Shown piece after piece: positions 2,180-49,340 of a stretch of 64,000 nt of DNA. The translations under genes were made by a program, and so were the position numbers. Under the pieces are notes generated by a model. It saw only the letters and a program-made list of their open reading frames with translations. It had not been told where the DNA came from and did not search any database. Position 1 is the first letter of the stretch; each line of letters opens with the position of its first letter. The stretch lies in the NCBI GenBank assembly GCA_041665005.1, contig JBAYJR010000001.1, forward strand, positions 4,727-68,726, given 5' to 3'. Source of the stretch: Candidatus Buchananbacteria bacterium (GTDB taxonomy: Bacteria > Patescibacteriota > Patescibacteriia > 2-01-FULL-39-33 > JBAYJR01).

Positions 2180-2707
2180 TTGATGAATATTCTATTTATT
2201 CCGGTTTGTGAAGCTAGTCCACCAGAAAATTTGGCGGGCACGGAAAATTTAAGGAGATTGAAAACCGGGTTGCGACTTTATCAATCCGGCGGATATGAGT
2301 TTATTTTACTCAGCGGTGGTGGTGGCACTATTGTTGAGTGGCCAAGTACACGTTTAATGCAGCGGTATTTGGTCAGGAATGGCGTGCCGAGCGATAAAAT
2401 TATTGTTGAGCAATGCTCGGTCACGACCTTTGAGAACGTAGAGTTTTCCTTACAAATTTTGCGGGAGGAATTTCCCGGTAAGGAAATTTGGCTGACGGTA
2501 GTCAGTCAATGGCAGCACACGTTACGGTTTTGGCTGACCTTGCGGGCTTATGAGGTTAAGTTCATAATTTGCCCCCAACCAAGCCAAGTGTCTGGTTGGC
2601 AAACTTTAGGAGAGTGGGCTTACCTGGTTTACACCTGGTATGATCCTACGGGGAGGAAATATTTCGCCAAATGGGGCGCCAAAAGGCGTCGCCAGAAGCG
2701 CCGGTAA
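2180..2707 (+). CDS. DUF218 (YdcF/SanA/ElyC-like) domain protein
   Basis: LLSGGGG motif and overall DUF218 pattern; RBS AGGAGG; sigma70-like promoter TTGACA-17-TAGAGT at 2120-2148. Confidence 0.55.
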   Translation: MMNILFIPVCEASPPENLAGTENLRRLKTGLRLYQSGGYEFILLSGGGGTIVEWPSTRLMQRYLVRNGVPSDKIIVEQCSVTTFENVEFSLQILREEFPGKEIWLTVVSQWQHTLRFWLTLRAYEVKFIICPQPSQVSGWQTLGEWAYLVYTWYDPTGRKYFAKWGAKRRRQKRR

Positions 2708-2793
2708 GAGTTAGGGCTAGTTATTAAAACTAGCCCTTTTATTTTTGGTGAAAATTTGGTAAACTAAAGAGGATTTAAAGCTAAATTTAATTT

Positions 2794-3834
2794 ATGGATT
2801 TTGGTACAATTTTATTAATTTTTTTAGTGCTAGCCGGTTTTGCAGCGGTAATTTTAGTGTTGAACAAAAAAAATACTCAGCCAGAAAACACGCAAGGTAT
2901 GACGATGTTGCAAAATCAGCTTAACGAATTGCATCGGGTGGTAGATAACAAATTAAGCGAATCGCATCGTAGCTTACAGCAACAGTTTGGCCAGAGTTTA
3001 AAAATTGTGCAAGATGTGACTGAGAAGTTAACTAAATTAGATGAAACCAACAAGCAAGTTATTTCTTTTGCCGATCAACTACAACAACTGCAAAATATTT
3101 TAAAAAATCCCAAACAACGGGGAGTCTTGGGTGAATATTATTTAGAAACCTTATTAAAAAATGTCCTGCCGCCCGGCAGTTATCAAATGCAGTATCCATT
3201 TAAGGACGGCACGATTGTAGATGCAATAGTTAGAGTAAAAGATAAAGTTATCCCGATTGATTCTAAATTTTCGTTGGAAAATTATAATCGTTTAGTGGAA
3301 GAACGTAACGAAACGGAACGGGCCAGGTTAGAAAAATCTTTTGTGAATGATTTAAAGTTGCGTATTACCGAAACGGCTAAATATATTCAGCCGTCGCAAG
3401 GCACCACGGACTTTGCTTTTATGTTTATTCCGCACGAAGCCATTTACTATGATTTGATTGTTAATAAAATTGGGGCGCTAAAAGATGAAGATACGGAAAA
3501 TTTAATTCAGCGCGCGGCCGGTAAATACAAAGTGATTATTGTTTCGCCCACCTCTTTTTTGGCTTATTTACAGACGGTACTGCAGGGTTTGCGGGCAATG
3601 CAAATTGAAGAATCAGCCAAAGAAATTCGCCAGCGGGTGGAACAATTAGGTAAGCACTTATTAAACTATGATGATTATTTTTCTAAATTAGGCACGCAGT
3701 TGGGCACCACGGTTAATACTTACAACGCCGCTTATAAGGAATTTATGAAAATTGAAAAAGACGTGGTAAAAATCGCCGGTGGCGAAACGCAGCTAGAAAT
3801 AAAGGTTTTGGACAAACCAAACATTGAGCCTTGA
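2794..3834 (+). CDS. rmuC: DNA recombination protein RmuC
   Basis: N-terminal TM, long coiled-coil region, C-terminal RmuC-like block FMFIPHEAIYYDL ... VSPTSFLAYL. Confidence 0.7.
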   Translation: MDFGTILLIFLVLAGFAAVILVLNKKNTQPENTQGMTMLQNQLNELHRVVDNKLSESHRSLQQQFGQSLKIVQDVTEKLTKLDETNKQVISFADQLQQLQNILKNPKQRGVLGEYYLETLLKNVLPPGSYQMQYPFKDGTIVDAIVRVKDKVIPIDSKFSLENYNRLVEERNETERARLEKSFVNDLKLRITETAKYIQPSQGTTDFAFMFIPHEAIYYDLIVNKIGALKDEDTENLIQRAAGKYKVIIVSPTSFLAYLQTVLQGLRAMQIEESAKEIRQRVEQLGKHLLNYDDYFSKLGTQLGTTVNTYNAAYKEFMKIEKDVVKIAGGETQLEIKVLDKPNIEP

Positions 3835-4142
3835 CAATTTTTTTAAAATAATTTACTATTAATTTAGTTAGCCTATTCCAGTTTTGGACAGGCCACAGAT
3901 AGCGTTGCTTTATAGTGACCCACTGTCTCAGCATGGAGTAATCCATGGAACTGGGTTTATTGAGTAAAATGGCATATAAAATAAGTGATCGAAGGCTAGA
4001 GAAATACTATATTGCTAAGCCCGAGATGTCGTATTTAAGGCCGGCCCTCTCACCAACCGTTTAGACGGTTGGTTTTATTTTTCAGAATAAAACACATAAT
4101 TTCTGCCATATTTAGATTTTTTATGGTAAAATAGAGGTAGTT

Positions 4143-7142
4143 ATGAATAGTAGTTTGCTAAAAGATTTAAATGCCGAACAGCAACAGGCTGTCACTTATG
4201 GTGACGGTCCTTTGTTATTGGTTTCGGGCGCCGGTACTGGTAAAACCACTGTAATTACTCGGCGGCTAGCTTATTTAATTTTGGTTAAGCACGTGCCAAC
4301 TACTGACATCTTAGCCCTGACTTTTACCGACAAGGCCGCCGCCGAAATGGAAGAGCGGGTGGACAAATTAATGCCTTACGGTTATTTGGATATTGCTATT
4401 GGTACTTTTCACGCTTGGTGCGAAAAGTTATTGCAAGATTATGGTTTGGAAATTGGCCTGCCAAATAATTTTAAGTTATTAAATACTACTGAGCAGTGGT
4501 TATTGGTGCGACAAAATTTAGCCAAGTTTAAATTAGATTATTATCGGCCGCTAGGTAATCCTATTCGGTTTATTCACGAACTAATTAAACATTTTTCTCG
4601 CTTGAAAGATGAAAACATTACGCCAGAGCAATATTTGGCCTATGCCGAAAATTTAAAGCTTAATGCCGATTCGGCGGATTTTATTAAAGAATTGATTGAC
4701 GACGAGACGCGCGCCAGTTTGACGGAGTCAGAATTAAAAGAATTATCAACGCAAGAAATTAAAAAAGTTGAGGAAGTGGCCAATGCTTACCACCTTTATC
4801 AGCAATTATTACTAGACAACCAGGCCTTGGATTTTGGCGATTTAATTACCTACAGCTTGCGCCTACTTAAAGCCCGGCCTAAGATTTTAGCTAAGTTAAG
4901 AAAGAAATATCAATATATTCTGGTGGACGAATTTCAGGATACTAATTTAGCGCAATATGATTTGATTAAGTTGTTGGCTACGCCGCGTAATAATCTGACG
5001 GTTTGTGGTGATGATGATCAATCAGTTTATAAATTTCGCGGGGCGGCGATTTCTAACGTTTTACATTTTATGGATGATTTTCCCGCCGCGACTAAGATTT
5101 TTTTAACCAAAAATTATCGTTCGGCGCAAAATATTTTAGATTTGGCTCATGCTTTTATTAAACAAAACGATCCTAATCGTTTGGAATATAAATTGGCTCA
5201 AGGAAAAGCTACACCTAAAAAATTGACCGCACAAATAAAAGCGGACGGCGAAATTTTACATTTACACGCGGCCACTGCCGAACAGGAAGTAAACGCGGTT
5301 TTGAGCAAAATCGCGGAATTAAAAATATCAGACCCCAGTTGTAATTGGAGCGATTTTGCCATTTTGGTGCGCGCCAATGATACTGCCAGTTTATTTATTT
5401 ATGCCTTGGAAAAAAATGAATTGCCTTACCAATTTGTGGCCTCACGGGGTTTATATAGTAAGCCAATTATTTTGGATATTTTAGCTTATTTAAAGTTGTT
5501 GGATAATTATCATGAAGGCCCGGCGCTGTATCGGGTGTTACGTTGGCCGCAGTTTAATTTATCCACGGCCGCCTTGATGAATTTAAGTTATTGGTCCCAG
5601 CGCAAAAGTCAGTCGCTGTATGAAACCTTAAAGCAGGCGGCCGCCGTACCGCAATTGCCCGAAGAAGAAATTGGTGAAGTTAATAAATTATTAGCCTTGA
5701 TTGAAAAACATTCGCAATTAACCAAAACCAAAGCGGTCAGCGAGGTGATTTTAACTTTTTTAGAGGATACAGGTTACCTAAAAGAATTAACCAGGCTTGA
5801 AAATGTTAAATCAGTGGAAGCGGCGGCTCAGTTAGAACAGTTTTATAAAAAAATTAGAGATTGGGAAAGTGCCGCGGCGGAAAAAACGGTGCACAATTTT
5901 TTACAGCTGATTGAGTTTGAATTAGAGGCGGGTGAAGCCGGCGCTTTAAAGCCGTCCACTCAAGCGGGACCGGAAGCGATTAAAGTAATGACCGTGCATG
6001 CCGCTAAAGGCTTGGAATTTAAATATGTCTTTATTGTTAGTTTGGTTGATCGACGGTTTCCGGCCAGTGAACGCAGTGAGGCAATTGAGATACCTAGTAG
6101 TTTGGTTAAGGAACAGTTACCGGTGGGCGATACTCATTTAGAAGAGGAACGGCGGTTATTCTATGTGGCGATGACTCGAGCTAAACAAGGTTTGTATTTA
6201 ACCAGTGCCCAAGATTATGGTGGCGCGCGGGCTAAAAAGTTGTCACGTTTTTTGAATGAATTAGAACCATTGGGATTAAAATTAGCTCCGGCCAAAGAAA
6301 CGGCCGTAGCAAACTTAGAAAATATTTCGGTCAGCGCCGAAGATTGGTCCGAGTTTGTCCCGCAAAAATTTTCTTTTACCCAATTAAAAGCCTTTGAGGC
6401 CTGTCCTTATCAGTATCGTTTTGCTCATTTGTTGCGAATTCCGGTTAAAGGTAAGGCGGTTTTTTCTTTTGGTAAAACCTTGCATAACACTTTGCAAAAG
6501 TTTTTTGTTTTGGTCCAAGAAAGATCCAGTGTGGTTCAGCCAAGTTTATTAGGGGAAAGCCAAGCGGTGGCCGGTAAAATAGTTACTCTGGAGGAATTGC
6601 AGGATTTATATGAACAAAGTTGGCAAGGGGATTGGTTTGAAAGTCCGGAACAAAAAGTTGAATATTTAGCCAAAGGTAGAAGTATTTTAAAAAATTTTTA
6701 TCAATCGCTGGGTGAAAAATTCCCAGTCCCGCTTTATTTGGAATATCCGTTCAATTTAAAAATTTCCGATGGCCAAGATTATACTATTAAAGGAGTAATT
6801 GATCGAGTAGATGAAGAGGCCGGTCAATTAGTGTTGATTGATTATAAAACTGGAACGGCCAAAAATCCTAGTAAATTAACCTTGGAAGACAAAGAACAGC
6901 TGTTAATTTATCAAATCGCGGCTGAAGAAATTTTTGACCGGCCCGTCCAGAAGCTGTATTATTACTATTTAGAAGGTGATCTTAAGGCGGAGTTCTTGGG
7001 CACGGCCAAAGAATTGGAGAAAGTAAAGAATAAAGTGATTAAAACGATTGAAGAAATTAGGCGAGGAAAATTTTTACCCACCCCCGGTCGAATTTGTAAG
7101 TTTTGTGATTTTAAAAACATCTGTGAATTTAGAGTTAATTAA
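4143..7142 (+). CDS. UvrD/PcrA-family ATP-dependent helicase fused to a C-terminal PD-(D/E)xK, Cas4/AddB-like nuclease domain
   Basis: Walker A GAGTGKT, DExQD-like VDEFQDTN, helicase motif VI-like VAMTRAK; C-terminus has IDRVDEE ... LIDYKTG and a Cys cluster (ACPY ... CKFCDFKNIC) typical of Cas4-like FeS nucleases. Confidence 0.85.
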   Translation: MNSSLLKDLNAEQQQAVTYGDGPLLLVSGAGTGKTTVITRRLAYLILVKHVPTTDILALTFTDKAAAEMEERVDKLMPYGYLDIAIGTFHAWCEKLLQDYGLEIGLPNNFKLLNTTEQWLLVRQNLAKFKLDYYRPLGNPIRFIHELIKHFSRLKDENITPEQYLAYAENLKLNADSADFIKELIDDETRASLTESELKELSTQEIKKVEEVANAYHLYQQLLLDNQALDFGDLITYSLRLLKARPKILAKLRKKYQYILVDEFQDTNLAQYDLIKLLATPRNNLTVCGDDDQSVYKFRGAAISNVLHFMDDFPAATKIFLTKNYRSAQNILDLAHAFIKQNDPNRLEYKLAQGKATPKKLTAQIKADGEILHLHAATAEQEVNAVLSKIAELKISDPSCNWSDFAILVRANDTASLFIYALEKNELPYQFVASRGLYSKPIILDILAYLKLLDNYHEGPALYRVLRWPQFNLSTAALMNLSYWSQRKSQSLYETLKQAAAVPQLPEEEIGEVNKLLALIEKHSQLTKTKAVSEVILTFLEDTGYLKELTRLENVKSVEAAAQLEQFYKKIRDWESAAAEKTVHNFLQLIEFELEAGEAGALKPSTQAGPEAIKVMTVHAAKGLEFKYVFIVSLVDRRFPASERSEAIEIPSSLVKEQLPVGDTHLEEERRLFYVAMTRAKQGLYLTSAQDYGGARAKKLSRFLNELEPLGLKLAPAKETAVANLENISVSAEDWSEFVPQKFSFTQLKAFEACPYQYRFAHLLRIPVKGKAVFSFGKTLHNTLQKFFVLVQERSSVVQPSLLGESQAVAGKIVTLEELQDLYEQSWQGDWFESPEQKVEYLAKGRSILKNFYQSLGEKFPVPLYLEYPFNLKISDGQDYTIKGVIDRVDEEAGQLVLIDYKTGTAKNPSKLTLEDKEQLLIYQIAAEEIFDRPVQKLYYYYLEGDLKAEFLGTAKELEKVKNKVIKTIEEIRRGKFLPTPGRICKFCDFKNICEFRVN

Positions 7143-7181
7143 AAAAACTTTTTAACTTTATACTTTTTACTTGATAACTAA

Positions 7182-7478
7182 ATGTCAATGCACCAGCTAA
7201 AAGATTTATTGCAACGCTCCGTTAATCGAGCGGGAATTTCTAAAGAAGTGGAAGCTTCTTTGATTTGTGAAAAATTTTTGGAAGTGGTTAAAGAAACGTT
7301 TGGCGCGGCTTGGCAAAAAAATTGTAAGCCGCTTTATGTTAAAAATAATACGATTACGGTGGCTTGTTTAAACAACGTCGTGGCCCAAGAAATAAAATTA
7401 CGGGAAAAAGTTTTGCTGGCTAGTTTAGAAAAAATTTTAAAAAAGAAAAGCGTAGAAAGGATTAGGTTTGTAATTTAG
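7182..7478 (+). CDS. DUF721 (DciA-like) small protein
   Basis: About 98 aa with the typical W..NCKPLYVKNNTITVACLNNVVAQEIKL pattern of the DUF721 family. Confidence 0.5.
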   Translation: MSMHQLKDLLQRSVNRAGISKEVEASLICEKFLEVVKETFGAAWQKNCKPLYVKNNTITVACLNNVVAQEIKLREKVLLASLEKILKKKSVERIRFVI

Positions 7479-7493
7479 TAAAGAAGTCAAAAA

Positions 7494-7583
7494 GTGTAAA
7501 GTGTAAAGTGTAAAGTGTAAAGTGTAAAGTGTAAAGTGTAAAGTGTAAAGTGTAAAGTGTAAAGTGTAAAGTGTAAAGTGTAA
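7494..7583. repeat. Perfect heptanucleotide microsatellite (GTGTAAA)x about 12.7
   Basis: Read directly in the sequence, immediately upstream of the four-helix-bundle gene. Confidence 0.95.
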
Positions 7584-7588
7584 AAGTA

Positions 7589-7933
7589 ATGAGGATTGAA
7601 AAATTTGAAGATATTTATGCCTGGCAAAAGGGGAGACAACTAGTAATTGAAGTTTATCGGTTAACGGAGGATAGTCGGGATTATTCTTTTAGAGATCAAT
7701 TAAGGCGGGCCAGTATTTCTGTTATGAACAATATTGCCGAAGGCTTTGAACGAAATACTAATCAGGAATTTAAACATTTTTTGTACATTGCCAAAGGCTC
7801 GTGTGGTGAGGTAAGATCGATGTTGTATTTGACTTTAGAGTTTAATTATTTTACCACTGAGCAGTTTAATAAAGTGTATAGTTTGTCAGTCGAAATTTCT
7901 AGGTTACTGGCTGGTTTAATAAAATCCTTATAG
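7589..7933 (+). CDS. Four-helix-bundle protein of the 23S rRNA intervening-sequence protein family (PF05635/TIGR02436-like)
   Basis: Hallmark block FRDQLRRASISVMNNIAEGFERNTNQEFKHFLYIAKGSCGEVRSMLYL. Confidence 0.85.
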   Translation: MRIEKFEDIYAWQKGRQLVIEVYRLTEDSRDYSFRDQLRRASISVMNNIAEGFERNTNQEFKHFLYIAKGSCGEVRSMLYLTLEFNYFTTEQFNKVYSLSVEISRLLAGLIKSL

Positions 7934-7935
7934 TT

Positions 7936-8004
7936 TTTACGCTCTTTACTTTTTACTTTCTATTTTTAACTATTTAATTTTTAATTTTTAATTTTTAAAT
8001 TTAT
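7936..8004. repeat. AT-rich imperfect tandem repeat (TTTTACT / TTTTTAA units)
   Basis: tttttacgctctttactttttactttctatttttaactatttaatttttaatttttaatttttaaatttat; loosely inverse-like to the upstream GTGTAAA repeat. Confidence 0.7.
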
Positions 8005-8163
8005 ATGCGTGATCATGCTCGGGGCAAGTCAAACAAAAAAGTAGTGGGTTATCGAACGCCGTCTCGCTTTAAAGTGGTGGGTCCGCAGGCCAATCAACGC
8101 GAACAAGGACATTTTAGTCGGCCAACCGAAGCCCAACGGAGCCGCGCTTTTAAGGCTAAATAA
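8005..8163 (+). CDS. Possible small, highly basic protein (52 aa; MRDHARGKSNKKVVGYRTPSRFKVVGPQANQREQGHFSRPTEAQRSRAFKAK)
   Basis: ORF shorter than the track cutoff, translated by hand; start context AAATTTATATG matches many genes in this window; higher GC than the flanks; ends at a shared hairpin terminator at 8162-8195. Confidence 0.3.
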   Translation: MRDHARGKSNKKVVGYRTPSRFKVVGPQANQREQGHFSRPTEAQRSRAFKAK

Positions 8164-8177
8164 AAAAACCGCAAATT

Positions 8178-8855
8178 TTAAAATTTGCGGTTAGTAGCTA
8201 AAGGTTTTTCGGTTAGTTTTTTTCTGTCGCTGATAATTTTATCCAGACCAACACACTGGATATTTTTTTGTTTCAACCAAGCTAGTAGGTCCGGCAAATA
8301 ATTCAAAGTTTCTGTTTGGTCGTGCAGTAAAATTATTGACGGCCAAGTCAGCTCGGCTAACTGGCTAGTAACACAAGCCAGGGCTTTTTCTGGTTTTTGC
8401 CAGTCGCGACTATCTACTTGCCAAGTAACTGTTTGATAGCCTAAGCGGTCAAGGGTTAGTTGGTTAGCCCCGTTATACCGACCAGCGGGCGGCCGGAAAT
8501 AAATTGGTTTGGTGCCAAAATATTCCTGGCAGAGTTTTTCGGTGGTGGTAATTTGACTAACTAATTGTTGGTCCGTTAGTTTGGTAATATTGGGGTGATC
8601 AAAAGTGTGGTTGCCGATCAGACAATTATTAGCTAATGCTTGTTGCAAAGCCGAATAATACTTAGGTAATTGTTCGCCGATAACAAAAAAGGTTACGGAA
8701 CAAGAATTTGCGGCCAAAGTTGAAACAATGGCCTGGGTATTAATTGTTGGCGCGTCATCAATTGTTATGGCTACTTCCGTTGGCCAGGCTAATAAAGCCT
8801 GGTTTGTTAATAAACTTAACCCCAAATAGAGCCCCAGTAGTGTTTTTTTGGTCAT
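8178..8855 (-). CDS. Polysaccharide deacetylase (NodB homology domain), secreted
   Basis: N-terminal signal peptide; TIDDAP and HTFDHP motifs of the NodB/CE4 family. Confidence 0.8.
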   Translation of the reverse strand: MTKKTLLGLYLGLSLLTNQALLAWPTEVAITIDDAPTINTQAIVSTLAANSCSVTFFVIGEQLPKYYSALQQALANNCLIGNHTFDHPNITKLTDQQLVSQITTTEKLCQEYFGTKPIYFRPPAGRYNGANQLTLDRLGYQTVTWQVDSRDWQKPEKALACVTSQLAELTWPSIILLHDQTETLNYLPDLLAWLKQKNIQCVGLDKIISDRKKLTEKPLATNRKF

Positions 8856-9018: not shown

Positions 9019-9225
9019 TTACGATAAGAAATCGTAATTAGCAGTTAAAATTGTTTTTTACAAAATTTAATCAAAATTCTCTGAGGAGAGAGTTTTTATT
9101 GTCATTGCGAGGCTGTTTGCCGTGGCGATCTTTAGCTAGTCTAAAGATTTGTTTCACCCCGTTTAAACGTGGCTTGCAATGACAAAATAAAAAACTCTCC
9201 ATTAGGTGAGTTTTTTTGTTTAATG
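9019..9225 (+). ncRNA. Candidate small RNA: 5' hairpin, then a long near-perfect stem of about 24 bp enclosing about 75 nt with internal hairpins, then a U-tract
   Basis: Hairpin attacgat-aagaa-atcgtaat at 9019-9040; arms GGAGAGAGTTTTTATTGTCATTGC (9076-9099) and GCAATGACAAAATAAAAAACTCTCC (9176-9201); inner hairpin atctttag-ctagt-ctaaagat; T7 tract at 9212-9218. Confidence 0.35.
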
Positions 9226-9440
9226 CTAGCCGCAGTGTTGTTGAGAATCAAGTTCTAAAACAGGGAGAAAAACACATTATGTTATATTAGAGCCCGAAAG
9301 TTTTTCATCAGGTATCCTCAATAACACCGTGGCCAGCCAGATTCATTAAACTGACCATTGGCTAATCGGCGACCAGACCCCAACCTGCCTATTGGTTTCC
9401 ATTTAAAGGCTGGAAAAACTTTGTTTTAAGTTTAAAAACT

Positions 9441-13000: not shown

Positions 13001-14065
13001 ATGAAAGATCAATTAACTAAGTTATTAGCTTTAGCCAAACAGGAAATTTCTCAAGCCAGTGATTTGGCGGCGATAACACAATTAGAAATTAAATATTTAG
13101 GACGCGCTCAGGGCGAGTTAACGGCGATTTTGCGTCAATTAAAAACTGTGGCTGAAGCGGATCGGCCAATGGTGGGCCAATTAGCTAATCAGGTTAAACT
13201 AGAATTAGAGCAGGCTTTGAATACTAAAAAACAGGAATTAACCACAGGCGACTTGGCTGGCAATTTAGCTAAAGATTGGTTGGATGTTACTAGTCCGGGT
13301 TTAACTAAGGCAGTTGGTCATTTACACCCCATTACCCAGGCAATTAATGAAATCGTAGAAATTATGGGGCAGTTGGGTTTTTATCGCGTGCGTTATCCCG
13401 AAGTAGAGTGGGATTATTATGCTTTTTCCAGTTTAAATATGCCGGCTGATCATCCCGCTCGCGATGAATGGGAAACTTTTTTTATTGATAAAGAACCGGT
13501 TGGTGAGCTGGGCCAACGGTTATTAACACCCCATACTTCTTCGGGTCAGGTGCGAGAAATGGAAAAGGGTCGGTTGCCAATTAGAATGTTAAATGTTGCT
13601 AAATGCTATCGGCGTCAGATGGATGTTTCGCATTTAGTAATGTTTCATCAATTTGAAGGTTTGTTGGTTGATAAAAATGTCAGCATCGCGGAAATTAAGG
13701 GTACGTTTGATTTTTTTGTCAAAAAGTTTTTTGGTCCCGATCGGACGATTCGTTTACGACCGCATCATTTTCGGTTTACCGAACCAAGTTTTGAAATTGA
13801 TGTATCTTGTGGTTTATGTGGCGGGACTGGCAAATTAAGCCAAGGCGAGGATTGCCGGGTTTGTAAAATGGGTTGGTTGGAATTAGGCGGCGCCGGCATG
13901 GTGCATCCGAATGTTTTAAAAGCGGGGAAAATTGACCCCAAAGTTTATCAGGGCTTTGCTTTTGGTTGGGGAGTGGAACGAACTTATATGATGAAGGCGG
14001 GAGTAAAATTAGATGACATCCGTTTAATTTATCAAAACGATTTAAGATTTTTAGAACAATTTTAA
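13001..14065 (+). CDS. pheS: Phenylalanine--tRNA ligase alpha subunit, with an inserted Cys4 zinc-ribbon
   Basis: Class II motifs FRFTEPSFEID ... GWGVERT; insertion SCGLCGGTGKLSQGEDCRVCKMG where E. coli PheS has a short loop. Confidence 0.95.
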   Translation: MKDQLTKLLALAKQEISQASDLAAITQLEIKYLGRAQGELTAILRQLKTVAEADRPMVGQLANQVKLELEQALNTKKQELTTGDLAGNLAKDWLDVTSPGLTKAVGHLHPITQAINEIVEIMGQLGFYRVRYPEVEWDYYAFSSLNMPADHPARDEWETFFIDKEPVGELGQRLLTPHTSSGQVREMEKGRLPIRMLNVAKCYRRQMDVSHLVMFHQFEGLLVDKNVSIAEIKGTFDFFVKKFFGPDRTIRLRPHHFRFTEPSFEIDVSCGLCGGTGKLSQGEDCRVCKMGWLELGGAGMVHPNVLKAGKIDPKVYQGFAFGWGVERTYMMKAGVKLDDIRLIYQNDLRFLEQF

Positions 14066-16868: not shown

Positions 16869-18050
16869 ATGTCTCAGCTCAAAGATAATTGCCAAGAACT
16901 TACCAACCTGCTTTTGGAACTTAAAAACCTTAAGTCGGAGTTTGATTTGGCTTATCAAGAAGCTTTGGTTAGTCGTGACCTGACTAAACTCAGGGGGTTA
17001 AAGATGCAAATTGAGAGCGAGGTAAGTAAATTAGAGGTTAAGGCCGATCCTTTTAATGTCGCCTTTGAAGTAGATTTGAGAAAAAAATTAGCTGAACAAA
17101 GTAATTTAGATTTTGTTGGTGCTTTCCATGAGGGCTGGGCTTTGGTTAAAAATGGTGTAGAATATTTTTATATAGATCGGACTGGCAAGGAAATTGGTCC
17201 GGTCATGTTTAGTCCTGTTAGGTATGATTATGCTCAAAATTTTTCAAACGGTTTGGCTTGGGTTGTAATAAGTGGAAAATATTTTTATATTGATTACACA
17301 GGCAAAGAAATTAGCGTTGAAAGATACGACGATGCTACTGACTTTAAGGAAGGCTTGGCGGGTGTTAAAAGAGGCAAAGAATGGTTTTTTATCAATCCTG
17401 CTGGTCAAGCAATTAATTTAGAAAGATATGATGATGTCGGCAACTTTTCTGAAGGCTTGGCTCGAGTTATAAAAAAACACACCCAGTGGTTTTATATTAA
17501 TCACGCTGGTCAAGAAATTAGCGCCGAAAGATACGATGGTGCTGAGGATTTTCATGAAGGCTTAGCTCGAGTTAGAAAAGATAACAAGTGGTTCTATATT
17601 AATCGAGTTGGTTCAGAATTAGTCTTGAAGGACTATGATTTTGTTGGTGATTTTGTTGGTGGCTTGGCCGTGGCCCGAAAGGATAAGAAATATTTATACA
17701 TTGATCACTCGGGTAAGGAAATTATTTCAGCCAAGTATAACGCGGCCGGTGGTTTTGTAGAAGGCTTGGCTTGGGTTAGGGAAGGCGAAAAATATTATTT
17801 TATTGATCGTACTGGTCAAGAAATTAGTGCCGAAAGATATGATCGTGTTGGCAACTTTTCGGAAGGCTTGGCTTTGGTTAGGGAAGACAATAAATATTAT
17901 TTTATTGATCGTGCTGGTCGAGCAATCAATCCCGAAAAATATGATTTTGCCGAAAATTTTTCAGAAGGCTTGGCTCGGGTTACAAAAGATGGCAAGTGGT
18001 TTTATATTGACCATGCCGGCCGCAAAATATTTGAGGGGGAATTGCCTTAA
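16869..18050 (+). CDS. Paralog A1: conserved N-terminal CxELT..LKxLKxEFDL module plus about nine WG-like beta-propeller repeats
   Basis: Repeats of the form [KE][WY]F[YF]I[DN]xxGxEIxxERYDxAxxFSEGLARV resemble the KWG / WG-containing repeat (PF14903); the N-terminal 60 aa are shared with A2, A3 and the B family. Confidence 0.6.
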   Translation: MSQLKDNCQELTNLLLELKNLKSEFDLAYQEALVSRDLTKLRGLKMQIESEVSKLEVKADPFNVAFEVDLRKKLAEQSNLDFVGAFHEGWALVKNGVEYFYIDRTGKEIGPVMFSPVRYDYAQNFSNGLAWVVISGKYFYIDYTGKEISVERYDDATDFKEGLAGVKRGKEWFFINPAGQAINLERYDDVGNFSEGLARVIKKHTQWFYINHAGQEISAERYDGAEDFHEGLARVRKDNKWFYINRVGSELVLKDYDFVGDFVGGLAVARKDKKYLYIDHSGKEIISAKYNAAGGFVEGLAWVREGEKYYFIDRTGQEISAERYDRVGNFSEGLALVREDNKYYFIDRAGRAINPEKYDFAENFSEGLARVTKDGKWFYIDHAGRKIFEGELP

Positions 18051-18053
18051 TCT

Positions 18054-19220
18054 ATGTCTAATCCGGGATACAATTGCCAAGAACTTACTAACCTACTTTC
18101 GGCACTAAAAAACCTTAAGTCTGATTTTAATCTGGCTTATCAAGAAATCTTGGTTAGCCATGATTTAAGTCTAGCTAGAGCGCTTAAAATAAAAGTTAAA
18201 GAAAAGGTTAATAGTTTAGAGGCAAGAACTAATCCTTTTAATATCGCCTTTGAAGTAGATTTGAGAAAAAACTTAGCTGAACAAAATAATTTAGATTTTG
18301 TTGGTGCTTTTCATGGGGGCTGGGCTAAGGTTAAAAAAGATGGAAAATATTTTTTTATTGATAAAACCGGCAAGGAGCTTAGTTCAGAAAGATATGAGAG
18401 TGTTGGTAATTTTTCGGAAGGCTTGGCTTGGGTAAGAGATTCCAGAGGGTCTATTTATATTGATCGGACGGGCCAAGAAATTAGTTTAAAAAGATATAAT
18501 GTAGCGGGTGATTTTCATGAAGGTTTAGCTAGGGTTTTTGATACTGGGGACCATTTTTTTATTAATCGTGCCGGTCAAGAAATTAGTTCCGAAAGGTATG
18601 ATTTAGCTAATAATTTTTCGGAAGGCTTTGCGGGCGTTAAACAAGCTGGAAAAATGTTTTTTGTTGACCATGCAGGTAAAAAGCTTAATTTTAAGGAAGA
18701 TTATAAAGAGGTTTGTGATTTTTCTGAAGGTTTAGCCCGAGTTTCTAAAGATAAGGTGATGTTTTTTATTGACTATACAGGTCAAAGAGGCGTCACAACG
18801 ACTTATGATAACGCTAGTAGTTTTGTTGGTGGCTTGGCTTGGGTTGAAAAAGATGGAGAAGTTTTTTATATTAATTATGCTGGTGAGAAAGTTATTTCAG
18901 TAAAATATGATTTTGCTGATGATTTTCACGAAGGTTTGGCCCGGGTAGAAAAAGATGGTAAGTGGTCTTTTATTGATCGCACCGGCCAAGAGATTAATGC
19001 TGAAAAATATGATTTTGCTTCTAATTTTTCAGAAGGTTTAGTCCGGGTTGTAAGAAATAAGGAGTGGTTTTATGTTGACCGTGCTGGTCAAGAAATTAGT
19101 GCCGAAAGATATGCCTTTGCCGAAAATTTTTCTGAAGGTTTGGCACGAGTCCAAGAACAAGAATATGGAGAATATTCTTATATCGACCATACTGGTCGTA
19201 AGATATTTGATGAGAAATAA
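18054..19220 (+). CDS. Paralog A2: same architecture as A1
   Basis: MSNPGYNCQELTNLLSALKNLKSDFNLAYQE ... followed by WG-like repeats; 3 nt gap from A1. Confidence 0.6.
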   Translation: MSNPGYNCQELTNLLSALKNLKSDFNLAYQEILVSHDLSLARALKIKVKEKVNSLEARTNPFNIAFEVDLRKNLAEQNNLDFVGAFHGGWAKVKKDGKYFFIDKTGKELSSERYESVGNFSEGLAWVRDSRGSIYIDRTGQEISLKRYNVAGDFHEGLARVFDTGDHFFINRAGQEISSERYDLANNFSEGFAGVKQAGKMFFVDHAGKKLNFKEDYKEVCDFSEGLARVSKDKVMFFIDYTGQRGVTTTYDNASSFVGGLAWVEKDGEVFYINYAGEKVISVKYDFADDFHEGLARVEKDGKWSFIDRTGQEINAEKYDFASNFSEGLVRVVRNKEWFYVDRAGQEISAERYAFAENFSEGLARVQEQEYGEYSYIDHTGRKIFDEK

Positions 19221-19229
19221 CTTTTATCT

Positions 19230-20390
19230 ATGCCCAATCCCAAACCCAACTGTCAGGAACTTACTAACTTACTTTTGGCACTAAAAAATCTTAAGCCTGA
19301 GTTTGATTTGGCCTATCAAGAAGCCTTAATTAGCCGCGATTTGACTAAACTTAGGGGATTAAAAATACAAATTGAGAGTAAGGTAAAAGAATTGGAGGCC
19401 AAGCTTGACCCTTATAACATTGAACTACGAAAGAAATTAGCCGAAGAAAATGACTTTGATTTTGTTGGTAATTTTCATGACGGCTGGGCAAAAGTCAAAC
19501 AGTGTGGAGAATGGTTTTATGTTGATTGCTCTGGGCAACGAATTAACTCGAAAGAATACGACATTGCCTGTGATTTTTCAGAAGGCTTGGCTTCGGTTTG
19601 TAAAGATCATCAATGGTTTTATATTGATTGTGCCGGCCAAGCAATTAATTTCGAAAAATATGATGTTGCCGATAATTTTTCGGAAGGCTTAGCTTGGGTT
19701 AGAAAACAGAATACCTTTTTTTATATTAATAAGATTGGTCAGGCAATTAATACTGAAACTTATAGCAACGTTAGCCGTTTTCGGGGAGGCTTGGCTCATG
19801 TGAAAAAAACTGGAAAAAATTTGCTTATTGAAGATTTGCTTATTGATAGAACCGGTAAAGAGATAAGTTTAGGAAAATATGATATGGTTGGTGATTTTTC
19901 GGAAGGCTTGGTAAGAGTTTATTGTAAAGATCAGGGATGGTTTTATGTTGACCGCATGGGTCAAGAAATTAGTGCCGAAAGATATGATGGTGCGGAGGAT
20001 TTTCATGAAGGCTTGGCTCAAGTTAAAAGACAGGGGCAGTGGTTTTACATTAACCAGTCTGGGCGAGCAGTTAATCAAGAAACATATGATTTTGCTTCTA
20101 ATTTTTCGGAAGGTCTGACCCGGGTTATGAAAAATAGAAAAATGTTCTATATTGATCACGAGGGTCAAACAGTTAATCAAGAAACATATGATGAGGCTAG
20201 AGATTTCTCGGAAGGCTTGGCTCCAGTTAGAAAAGATGATAAGTGGTTTTATATTGATCGCGCTTGCCAAGCAATTAATTCTGAAAAATATAATATTGCC
20301 TTAAATTTTTGTGGAGGATTGGCATTAGTTACAAAAGCCGGAGAACGGTTTTATATTGACCACACTGGTCGCAAAATATTTAAGGATTAA
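19230..20390 (+). CDS. Paralog A3: same architecture as A1
   Basis: MPNPKPNCQELTNLLLALKNLKPEFDLAYQE ... followed by WG-like repeats; 9 nt gap from A2. Confidence 0.6.
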   Translation: MPNPKPNCQELTNLLLALKNLKPEFDLAYQEALISRDLTKLRGLKIQIESKVKELEAKLDPYNIELRKKLAEENDFDFVGNFHDGWAKVKQCGEWFYVDCSGQRINSKEYDIACDFSEGLASVCKDHQWFYIDCAGQAINFEKYDVADNFSEGLAWVRKQNTFFYINKIGQAINTETYSNVSRFRGGLAHVKKTGKNLLIEDLLIDRTGKEISLGKYDMVGDFSEGLVRVYCKDQGWFYVDRMGQEISAERYDGAEDFHEGLAQVKRQGQWFYINQSGRAVNQETYDFASNFSEGLTRVMKNRKMFYIDHEGQTVNQETYDEARDFSEGLAPVRKDDKWFYIDRACQAINSEKYNIALNFCGGLALVTKAGERFYIDHTGRKIFKD

Positions 20391-48788: not shown

Positions 48789-49340
48789 ATGAAAAAAGAT
48801 ATTGTTAAGGCCGCCAAAGAATATATGAAGCGGCAGACGAAAAAAAATCGGGCGCCAGCCTGGGCTTTGACAAAAATAGCCGTTAGCAAGGCCAAAGAGT
48901 TATTTAAGTGCTATGCGGTTGATAAAAAGGTGGTTTTGACGGCTTTGTATTTAGCTCATTTACAGTTTGGTGAACAATTAAGGCAACAAAAAAATCATGA
49001 TTTTAAAAGTGCCAAATTAGCGGCTAACTTTTTAGAAAAGTTTTTGGTTGATAAAAGTTTTAAAGCTAAAGTATTAAATGCCATTAAGGCCCATCATAAT
49101 AAAATTAAAACTAGATCTTTGGAGGCTGAAGTTGTAAAGAATGCTGAAGCTTTTAAGTTTTTAACTTTGGCCGGGGTTAAGATTATGTATCAGGAGGCAC
49201 TAAGGCGCGGGTATGGTACAAAAGAAGCAAAAGATTACGCTTTGTTAAAGATGAGACAAAAATACCAATTAGTTACCTTGCCTTGTTGTAAAAAAGAAGC
49301 CTTTAAAAATCGTCAATTAATAATTAAATTTTTTAAATAA
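48789..49340 (+). CDS. Hypothetical protein
   Basis: ORF between dnaK and dnaJ; no confident domain. Confidence 0.45.
   Translation: MKKDIVKAAKEYMKRQTKKNRAPAWALTKIAVSKAKELFKCYAVDKKVVLTALYLAHLQFGEQLRQQKNHDFKSAKLAANFLEKFLVDKSFKAKVLNAIKAHHNKIKTRSLEAEVVKNAEAFKFLTLAGVKIMYQEALRRGYGTKEAKDYALLKMRQKYQLVTLPCCKKEAFKNRQLIIKFFK

Follow-up and report, generated by a model that had tools for sequence, protein, structure and literature searches.

Positions 7491 to 8002 of the 64-kb window analyzed here (the whole stretch of DNA under study, whose numbering is used unless a locus is named) are probably occupied by a selfish, promoterless and horizontally spreading cassette of the same type as the intervening sequences (IVSs) of ribosomal RNA (rRNA), but located outside rRNA. 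The window comes from the genome of a Candidatus Buchananbacteria bacterium (Candidate Phyla Radiation (CPR)/Patescibacteria; GC content of 38%). The cassette consists of a purine-rich left arm, a gene of the S23p/PF05635 family and a pyrimidine-rich right arm composed of reverse-complement units; the start and stop codons of this gene abut the arms. It would be transcribed by read-through from dciA, the host gene located just upstream, and its arms may pair in the transcript into a long stem, typically of about 28 bp, that loops out the open reading frame (ORF). Such a stem would be analogous to that of the rRNA IVSs, which is cut by RNase III, and the A- and purine-rich left arm could additionally act as a translation leader for an ORF devoid of a Shine-Dalgarno sequence. 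The architecture of the cassette, the covariation of its arms, its presence or absence in relatives, its co-direction with neighboring genes, the changes in array length and the purifying selection on its gene are computed and not inferred.

Inverted arrays around a four-helix-bundle gene

In the window, the left arm is an array of 13.4 AAAGTGT units on the plus strand that extends from 7491 to 7587. Tandem Repeats Finder (TRF) places it at 7491-7584, with a period of 7, 100% matches and a score of 188; read in the GTGTAAA register, it comprises 13 copies from position 7494. It is the sole array of this kind in the 64 kb, far beyond what chance would produce, and it ends 4 nt upstream of the ATG at 7589, a distance that becomes 1-4 nt when the extension to 7587 is considered. 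With 14 AAAGT cores, it is also the longest among 68 left arms, whose median is 4. The gene that follows (7589-7933, plus strand), which is the cargo of the cassette, encodes a 114-aa four-helix-bundle protein that matches PF05635 (E-value of 4e-35, 120.6 bits for a cut-off of 33.8) and TIGR02436 (116.1 bits for a cut-off of 24), and in which the QLRRAxxSIxxNIAEG-type motif of the family is present as QLRRASISVMNNIAEG. Homologues in the PDB are 2GSC (XCC0516, E-value of 4e-13) and 2RLD (E-value of 9e-7), each deposited with five chains, and PMC4990558, citing Lin 2006, describes a homopentameric toroid. The window protein is near-neutral (pI 7.8) and its ORF is not preceded by a strong Shine-Dalgarno sequence. 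Purifying selection on the protein is apparent from the 301 synonymous versus 172 non-synonymous codon differences counted in pairs that are 75-99.5% identical. Neither this gene nor the small ORF described below has a paralogue in the window, neither of the two proteins matches the PADLOC defense models, and no homologue was found in a phage collection.

The right arm (7934-8002, plus strand) is a degenerate array of the same period, for which TRF reports 8.3 copies with 81% matches at 7945-8002. In the ACTTTNN register, its successive units are TTTTTAC, GCTCTTT, ACTTTTT, ACTTTCT, ATTTTTA, ACTATTT and three times AATTTTT, the 7-nt register being kept while the units drift from ACTTTNN to AATTTTT. 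The sequence TACTTTTTACTTTCTA is common to this arm and to the right arm of locus L013, the only relative whose arms are made of GTGTAAA units as in the window. The two arms of the window pair on the sense strand only, mainly via G.U pairs (duplex energies of -40.7 kcal/mol for the sense strand and -14.5 for the antisense strand, versus -25.7 +/- 7.1 for shuffled sequences), and the stem that they form closes the cassette in the minimum free energy fold of 7479-8004. A preliminary description of this DNA had reported a perfect heptamer array abutting the gene, the gene itself as a member of the four-helix-bundle (23S IVS) family and an imperfect AT-rich repeat directly downstream, all of which are indeed present, at the positions given or a few bases away; it had, however, treated the "microsatellite" and the AT-rich repeat as separate features. 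Because AAAGT/ACTTT arrays flank the gene family-wide, they are, by this comparison, the left and the right arm of one inverted bracket. The perfect 13-unit left arm would reflect a recent slippage expansion and the right arm would have drifted, which would make the window copy an asymmetric one.

The family-wide architecture was established in 80 metagenome loci picked solely by the similarity of their proteins, which share 57-66% identity with that of the window. Nearly all of them carry a short-period array with AAAGT cores shortly before the ATG, counted in 61 of 71 homologous loci, and one with ACTTT cores that follows the stop codon directly or overlaps it. The AAAGT motif occurs 4.77 times per 120 nt upstream of the gene for a background of 0.30 (about 16-fold), and ACTTT 3.72 times per 120 nt downstream for a background of 0.22 (about 17-fold), while motif counts in the wrong orientation stay near background; at least three cores are found on each side in 49/71 loci. 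The two arms of a given locus are moreover matched to each other: the base adjacent to the core covaries between them (C/C in 17 cases and T/T in 21, with few off-diagonal combinations), and an arm pairs more strongly with its own partner than with the arms of other loci (-40.1 versus -33.3 kcal/mol, p 3e-6). Arms typically contain 4 units (both mode and median), and arm-to-arm alignments comprise a median of 28 matched pairs. Unit length is bimodal in this AAAGT subfamily, with 110 cases of 7 nt, 121 of 9 nt and 30 of 8 nt, whereas it is nearly always 7 nt in other subfamilies. When all arrays were counted over 443 kb, 72 adjacent pairs with AAAGT followed by ACTTT were found; 57 of these have 300-480 nt between their arrays and 8 are hairpins without a gene. 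Pairs in the opposite order, ACTTT followed by AAAGT, were never seen at close range. In 20 loci, the right arm begins 6 nt ahead of the stop, within the conserved codons AAA-ACT-TTA for the C-terminal residues KTL, which form the first unit of this arm.

The arms and the gene also have a defined orientation. On the sense strand, the left arm is the purine-rich one in 65 of the 76 AAAGT-subfamily loci (p 2e-12) and in 7 of the first 8 examples of more divergent members. The four-helix-bundle gene is co-oriented with its upstream neighbor in 59/60 cases (p 2e-7) and with its downstream neighbor in 58/63 (p 2e-4), compared to 74% for the other adjacent gene pairs of the same loci, and the stop codon of the upstream gene and the beginning of the left arm are usually only a few bases apart. 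None of the 80 homologous loci lies in an rRNA context. Close homologues (60-68% identical) are found in many CPR lineages and in Bacteroidales, and even whole units, such as AAAGTTTGT and AAAGTTCAT, are common to bacteria as distant as CPR members and Segatella, the proteins being only 60-68% identical. In Segatella hominis (L085-L088, approximately 2600-5050), the cassette resides inside a diversity-generating retroelement (DGR), with a genuine bAvd gene on one side and the reverse transcriptase on the other; its arms are of the AAAGT/ACTTT type, the left one overlapping the end of avd, and its protein is 62% identical to that of the window. A solo AAAGT/ACTTT hairpin is present about 100 nt downstream of this cassette, where the template repeat of the DGR would be expected. 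Such solo hairpins accompany full cassettes in L006, L010, L018, L072, L088 and L089, and they fold strongly (z -3.7 to -7.6).

Array length differs between close relatives in the family, a variability that the preliminary description had expected. The L014 and L032 coding sequences (CDSs) are 98% identical and their flanks near-identical, but 64 nt of units set their left arms apart, while L018 and L019, whose CDSs are identical, differ by exactly one 9-nt unit. For the window locus itself, L001 is identical to the window but possibly assembled from the same reads, and the contig of L002 stops within the array. In L014, the ORF located directly upstream of the cassette (2700-2880) codes for the C-terminal half of a four-helix-bundle protein other than that of the cassette (…GANYRAACRGRSSAEFIAKLGIVIEEADES…); this ORF appears to be cut off by the left arm, a possible nested insertion of one family member in another.

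The dciA site and its resident small gene

The preliminary description had proposed to compare the interval from the dciA-like gene to the deacetylase gene in relatives; the spacer between dciA and the small ORF indeed reveals an indel. The window carries, in this order, a helicase gene, dciA, the cassette and the small ORF, with 526 bp between dciA and the small ORF. In L003 (helicase, dciA, small ORF), this spacer measures only 82 bp and is taken up nearly in full by a hairpin without a gene, (AAAGTTYRT)x3 and then (CTTTnnnA)x4, with a fold z of -4.1. In L092 (RmuC, helicase, dciA, small ORF), it measures 114 bp and contains no AAAGT/ACTTT motif, the absence of AAAGT there being confirmed by the motif census. 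The DciA proteins of these three loci are 74-79% identical. Since dciA is directly followed by the small ORF, without a four-helix-bundle gene, in both L003 and L092, the cassette is, as judged from this alignment of gene orders, an indel at the spacer. A more distant locus, L004 (DciA 33% identical), the only one retrieved by a scan of genomes for DciA, has the helicase and dciA genes but neither the cassette nor the small ORF. The proposal that an inserted module is present at this position is thus borne out for the four-helix-bundle gene and its arrays, whereas the small ORF, which had been counted as a part of it, belongs to the site.

This small ORF (8005-8163, plus strand) encodes a 52-aa basic protein (pI 11.8, 14 Lys and Arg residues) and has the start context AAATTTATATG; it was correctly described beforehand as lying in a GC-richer segment of about 150 nt. 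One homologue was recovered by word-indexed search and three further small ones by exhaustive HMMER search. Two of them, in L003 and L092, are syntenic, directly after dciA. Over the first 23 codons, the window and L003 differ by 12 synonymous and 2 non-synonymous changes, including a TCA/AGC switch between serine codons; the other two pairs of loci give a similar picture, and stops abound in the alternative frames. By these codon comparisons, the small ORF is a real gene under purifying selection, a resident neighbor of dciA that lies outside the cassette. Its protein has no match among Pfam, NCBIfam, PADLOC, PHROG or PDB profiles, and the AlphaFold model shows no confident fold (pLDDT 59, pTM 0.13). 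A structured RNA was also considered for 8005-8163 and was rejected, as this segment has no Rfam match and a fold z of +1.5. The GC content of 0.49-0.57 over 8000-8150, versus 0.38 for the window, is due to the coding content of the small ORF, with its Arg, Gly and Pro codons.

The other genes of this neighborhood are those expected from the preliminary description, with the dciA-like gene (7182-7478, plus strand; PF05258, E-value of 2e-11) on one side and a polysaccharide deacetylase gene (8178-8855, minus strand) on the other. A perfect 11-bp hairpin (8167-8192; -13.2 kcal/mol, z -3.7), detected by a terminator scan between the convergent small ORF and deacetylase gene, qualifies as a minus-strand terminator. 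Upstream of dciA lies a UvrD/PD-(D/E)XK helicase-nuclease gene (4143-7142, plus strand), and the spacer between them contains an orphan short-period array of the ACTTT type (7146-7176, plus strand; TRF periods of 7-8 and 14). Composed of ACTTTTTA, ACTTTAT, ACTTTTT and ACTTGATA, it resembles a right arm, with which it shares TACTTTTTACTT; it has three ACTTT cores in the motif census, no partner left arm and no structure of its own in the fold test. It could pair across dciA with the (AAAGTGT)n array, or be the remnant of an earlier cassette. AAAGT arrays are otherwise rare in the 64 kb: apart from this orphan beside the cassette, there is a single cluster, at 49037-49072, which was dismissed as fortuitous because it is irregularly spaced and internal to a CDS.

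Other short-period arrays were encountered at the relatives of this site. The helicase-dciA spacer of L003 (287-345) carries a gene-less array of another kind, also inverted, with (GTAAGCN)x3-4 and then (GCTTAC)x3 and a z of -3.7; it suggests that several families of tandem-unit hairpins exist in the intergenic spacers of CPR bacteria. In L092, both spacers that flank dciA (3471-3595 and 3887-4000) contain AT-rich period-8 arrays of the AATTTTNA type, together with a GC hairpin, TCCCGAAGGGATCCCTTTGGGA, and AT-rich short-period arrays seem to be a general intergenic feature of these genomes. Elsewhere in the window, three tandem paralogous genes (16869-20390; 393, 388 and 386 aa) are made of 102-nt (34-aa) repeats with 70-81% identity according to TRF. 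The sole Rfam match of the window that reaches the gathering score is a tRNA. Sub-threshold matches to Phe_leader on both strands (28 and 26 bits for a gathering score of 55) in the non-coding region beyond the deacetylase gene (9083-9288) are probably due to chance; pheS (13001-14065) is located about 4 kb further.

Divergent members, rRNA intervening sequences and heptamer repeats

ORF-containing IVSs are known from 23S rRNA, for instance in helix 45 of Coxiella burnetii and in Leptospira; we know of no function or mobility mechanism that has been established for their ORFs since about 1990. They share with the cassette an ORF of the S23p/PF05635/TIGR02436 family that is in the sense of the host transcript and lacks a strong Shine-Dalgarno sequence. 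In both cases, this ORF lies within stem-forming terminal inverted repeats, the pairing of which, for the cassette, is weak in the window and strong family-wide; the Coxiella stem, cut by RNase III, measures 28 bp (PMC4990558), to be compared with the median of 28 matched pairs given above. Both also have heptamers directly upstream of the ORF start (GACAGAT in Coxiella, where two or three copies precede the S23p ATG depending on the strain (PMC4990558), and GGACRGA in Azospirillum), with copy numbers that vary in Coxiella as in the cassette family. Sporadic presence among relatives is another common trait, seen for the cassette in the window, L003 and L092, and in the alternative positions occupied in Nostoc (see below). 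Unlike an rRNA IVS, the window copy is not inside a helix of an rRNA gene but between dciA and the small protein gene, i.e., in an intercistronic spacer of a protein-coding operon; hence, it would work like an IVS without being an rRNA IVS. Its units are 7- or 9-mers with an AAAGT core in the family, and 13-14 perfect units on the left face a drifted arm on the right in the window. Furthermore, the ORF is degenerating in Coxiella, whereas the ORF family of the cassette is intact and under purifying selection.

The same architecture is found much further in the family, among 18 divergent plasmid-borne members that are 29-47% identical to the window protein. Thirteen of the 18 display inverted arrays with units of their own, nearly all of 7 nt: GGGAAAA on the left and CCCTTTTC on the right in Nostoc (L094), (ACAGGTG)x15 and CTGTCAC in Anabaena (L095), GGTTYAA and TRAACCT in Riemerella (L096), GGGTGTR and YACACCC in Calothrix and Nostoc punctiforme (L097, L104), AGGAGAT and ATCTCCT in Picosynechococcus (L098), GGGAACA and TGTTCCC in Nostoc edaphicum (L102), or GTCAGGA and TCCTGAC in Aulosira and Nostoc (L107-L109). 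Only the downstream arm is present in L099 and L111. One member, L100 of Azospirillum lipoferum, is a true 23S rRNA IVS (2139 bits with the Rfam LSU model) and is bracketed by inverted GGACRGA heptamers; the link to intervening sequences drawn in the preliminary description thus extends to the architecture itself. The hosts of the divergent members are operon interiors, with the gene lying between cas6 and cas4, cas10 and cmr3, or parA-like and parB genes. On Nostoc plasmids with homologous operons, the gene is located after a 288-nt ORF in L094, with GGGAAAA units, and before this 288-nt ORF in L108 and L109, with GTCAGRA units. That different spacers are occupied and that the units differ as well indicates, at the level of gene order, independent insertions into neighboring intercistronic spacers. 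Even within Nostoc ATCC 53789, the unit differs from one copy to another (GGGAAAA versus GTCAGRA).

Heptamer repeats are over-represented in several bacteria, such as GGGAATC in Xanthomonas, GGGGAYT in Nostoc, the short tandemly repeated repetitive (STRR) sequences of cyanobacteria and TAACTGA in Beggiatoaceae. Like the arms of the cassette, they are made of 7-nt units arrayed in intergenic DNA, frequently stop next to a start codon or come in convergent pairs, vary in length between close relatives and have no known function. The connection is seen in Xanthomonas, where the gene of the homologues of XCC0516, a target of structural genomics, (L112-L116, 1424-1872) is inserted co-directionally between accB and accC, thereby splitting one of the most conserved two-gene operons of bacteria. 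Its left flank reads GGGAATC, GGGAGTG, GAGAATC and GGGAATC, its right flank consists of inverted heptamers with an ATTCCC core, and the start codon of the PDB construct appears to lie inside the left array. Since the same heptamers flank the gene there, the published GGGAATC repeats of Xanthomonas are, in view of this match, the arms of such a cassette at the XCC0516 locus. In Xanthomonas campestris, 186 GGGAATC arrays have been reported, 70 of them as convergent pairs; they can form G-quadruplexes and their function is unknown (Rehm et al., PMC4692102). The TAACTGA heptamers mostly end 1 nt before start codons and a role in translational regulation has been proposed for them (MacGregor 2015, PMC4679880). 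Both studies treat the arrays as stand-alone and neither mentions S23p or four-helix-bundle genes (PMC4692102, PMC4679880). In those genomes, heptamer arrays far outnumber the genes, in contrast to the window, where the array is tied to one cassette. In the open-access literature, we found no paper on inverted arrays around non-rRNA members of the family or on their link to heptamer repeats.

Weighing the readings of the arms and of the locus

Several observations weigh against an IVS-type cassette whose arms act as an RNA stem. In the window, the total fold energy of the cassette is unremarkable (z -1.6) and the right arm reaches its pairing only at the cost of many G.U pairs and mismatches. 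Family-wide, the mismatches between arms leave no wobble signature of the sense strand, as 71 transitions are G.U-compatible and 77 antisense-compatible, next to 229 transversions, and the energies of sense and antisense arm duplexes do not differ (p 0.10); these two results fail to demonstrate that selection on arm complementarity acts at the RNA level. Across phyla, it is the sequence of the AAAGT core itself that is conserved, which a stem alone does not require. Among the divergent members, L105 (plasmid of Pseudanabaena galeata, 760-1400, between cas6 and cas4) has direct arrays, (AAAGCTA)x15 upstream and (AAAGCCA)x10 downstream, L110 has no array on either side, and the cyanobacterial L103, L110 and L111 are not co-oriented with their neighbors. 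In addition, no mobility mechanism or enzyme has been identified for the cassette. The polarity of the purine-rich arm relative to the gene speaks for a role in transcription or translation that depends on the strand, at least for the left arm.

The lack of a wobble signature and the cross-phylum AAAGT core keep alive a model that is possible, if clearly less probable, in which the arms are putative heptad "iteron" sites, in double-stranded DNA, single-stranded DNA or RNA, for the cassette's own toroidal pentamer. Recognition would then serve autoregulation, maintenance or movement; this model is compatible with the identity of the cassette and differs only in the role given to the arms. Without wobble asymmetry, the arms behave as one double-stranded motif in inverted orientation, and such a model would suit the conservation of the core and of the whole units AAAGTTTGT and AAAGTTCAT from CPR bacteria to Segatella, as well as the divergence of units between protein subfamilies and even between copies of one genome in Nostoc ATCC 53789. 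The five chains of 2GSC and 2RLD, together with the homopentameric toroid described in PMC4990558 after Lin 2006, would provide the pentamer, and the modal arm has four contiguous units. A precedent exists in the ParB/omega dimers acting at the parS sites of pSM19035, each of which reads one contiguous 7-bp unit, direct or inverted, with at least four units being needed (PMC9499535); this is an analogy only, as ParB/omega is a ribbon-helix-helix dimer and not a four-helix-bundle pentamer. Against protein binding, no family member outside DGRs is known to bind nucleic acids, the window protein is near-neutral, the location of the purine-rich arm upstream on the sense strand is a polarity that symmetric sites in double-stranded DNA do not predict, and RNase III processing of the equivalent rRNA IVS stem is experimentally established (PMC4990558). 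It is improbable, in turn, that the arrays are pre-existing host hairpins of the repetitive extragenic palindrome (REP), miniature inverted-repeat transposable element (MITE) or terminator type, into the loop of which the gene was inserted, the arms being its target site. The gene-less hairpin found at exactly the same site in L003, the solo hairpins beside cassettes in the six loci listed above and the 186 GGGAATC arrays of Xanthomonas campestris (PMC4692102), only one pair of which flanks XCC0516, would fit this scheme. Solo hairpins do resemble MITE and REP elements in being gene-less, intergenic and strongly folding, and their relation to cassettes recalls that of a MITE to its autonomous element, but they have arms of short tandem units in place of a unique palindrome, and no transposase or enzyme of the REP-associated tyrosine transposase (RAYT) type. 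AAAGT arms, moreover, go with the gene across unrelated contexts and phyla, L092 has no hairpin at the same site, and AAAGT arrays are not scattered in the 64-kb window, with one orphan and one chance cluster. The first unit of the right arm is also embedded in conserved C-terminal codons and the start codon of the Xanthomonas construct appears to lie inside the left arm; as arm sequence thus overlaps codons at both ends of the gene, the arms and the ORF are physically one unit.

Two further explanations were considered. It is very improbable that the heptamer tract is a contingency microsatellite that switches the four-helix-bundle gene or the small ORF by phase variation. Its 13.4 perfect copies of a unit that is not a multiple of 3 would be appropriate, copy number does change between near-identical strains in the family and in Coxiella (PMC4990558), and translational regulation has been proposed for the TAACTGA heptamers (MacGregor 2015, PMC4679880). 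The tract, located between the dciA stop and the ATG, is however neither in a coding region nor in a predicted plus-strand promoter spacer, the only promoter-like matches over it being periodic ones on the minus strand; its length is the same in the two full assemblies of the locus, possibly built from shared reads; a typical arm counts only 4 units; and an on/off switch needs no inverted partner array after the gene, which is a family-wide feature. The idea that the locus is a DGR remnant, with an Avd-like gene and the GC-richer segment as template repeat of about 150 nt, has practically no probability left. PF05635 is related to the Avd proteins of DGRs. The window protein and bAvd share a four-helix-bundle fold, a pentameric state known for homologues and the same Pfam family or clan, and both genes are small and co-directional in an operon; a 62%-identical homologue is found inside the Segatella DGR and a template repeat would be about as long as the GC-richer segment. 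In contrast to a DGR, however, the window has no reverse transcriptase (nothing below an E-value of 1 in a tblastn search with a DGR reverse transcriptase) and no template/variable repeat pair: 7931-8200 has no second copy in the window beyond short chance matches, so that 8005-8163 lacks a variable repeat. Similarity to Avd is marginal (E-value of 0.1 for the PHROG Avd match, 0.11 in blastp against the Segatella bAvd), the DGR of Segatella has a genuine bAvd gene of its own beside the homologue, and the conserved CDS that makes up the GC-richer segment is under purifying selection. With no variable repeat, reverse transcriptase or Avd-level similarity, a DGR origin is effectively refuted.

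The locus itself is an asymmetric member of an already known kind of element. It exposes, however, a structural rule that seems to connect the ORFs of rRNA IVSs, the four-helix-bundle genes of operons and heptamer repeats. Tens of thousands of genes annotated as "four helix bundle protein" lie in operons, including cas operons, accBC, par operons and DGRs, and the over-representation of heptamer tandem repeats in bacteria is unexplained. The rule comprises element-specific inverted arrays, mostly of 7-nt units, with the purine arm upstream, co-directional insertion into operons, gene-less derivatives and a link to heptamer repeats; it appears to be undescribed in the searchable literature. On the practical side, the arrays break short-read assemblies, with many contigs of homologues being about 1 kb long and ending in repeats, and gene callers can mis-call ORFs within them. 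A bolder and rather doubtful extension would trace the heptamer-repeat excess (GGGAATC in Xanthomonas, possibly STRR sequences and other heptamer families) back to S23p/PF05635 cassettes and to their derivatives without a gene, with the pentamer as array-binding factor that recognizes its own element-specific heptads on DNA or RNA. If this were true, rRNA IVSs, operon-embedded four-helix-bundle genes and heptamer microsatellites would be one class of self-recognizing selfish cassette. The structural rule makes the function of IVS ORFs experimentally approachable, in Xanthomonas with XCC0516, in Nostoc and in Segatella.

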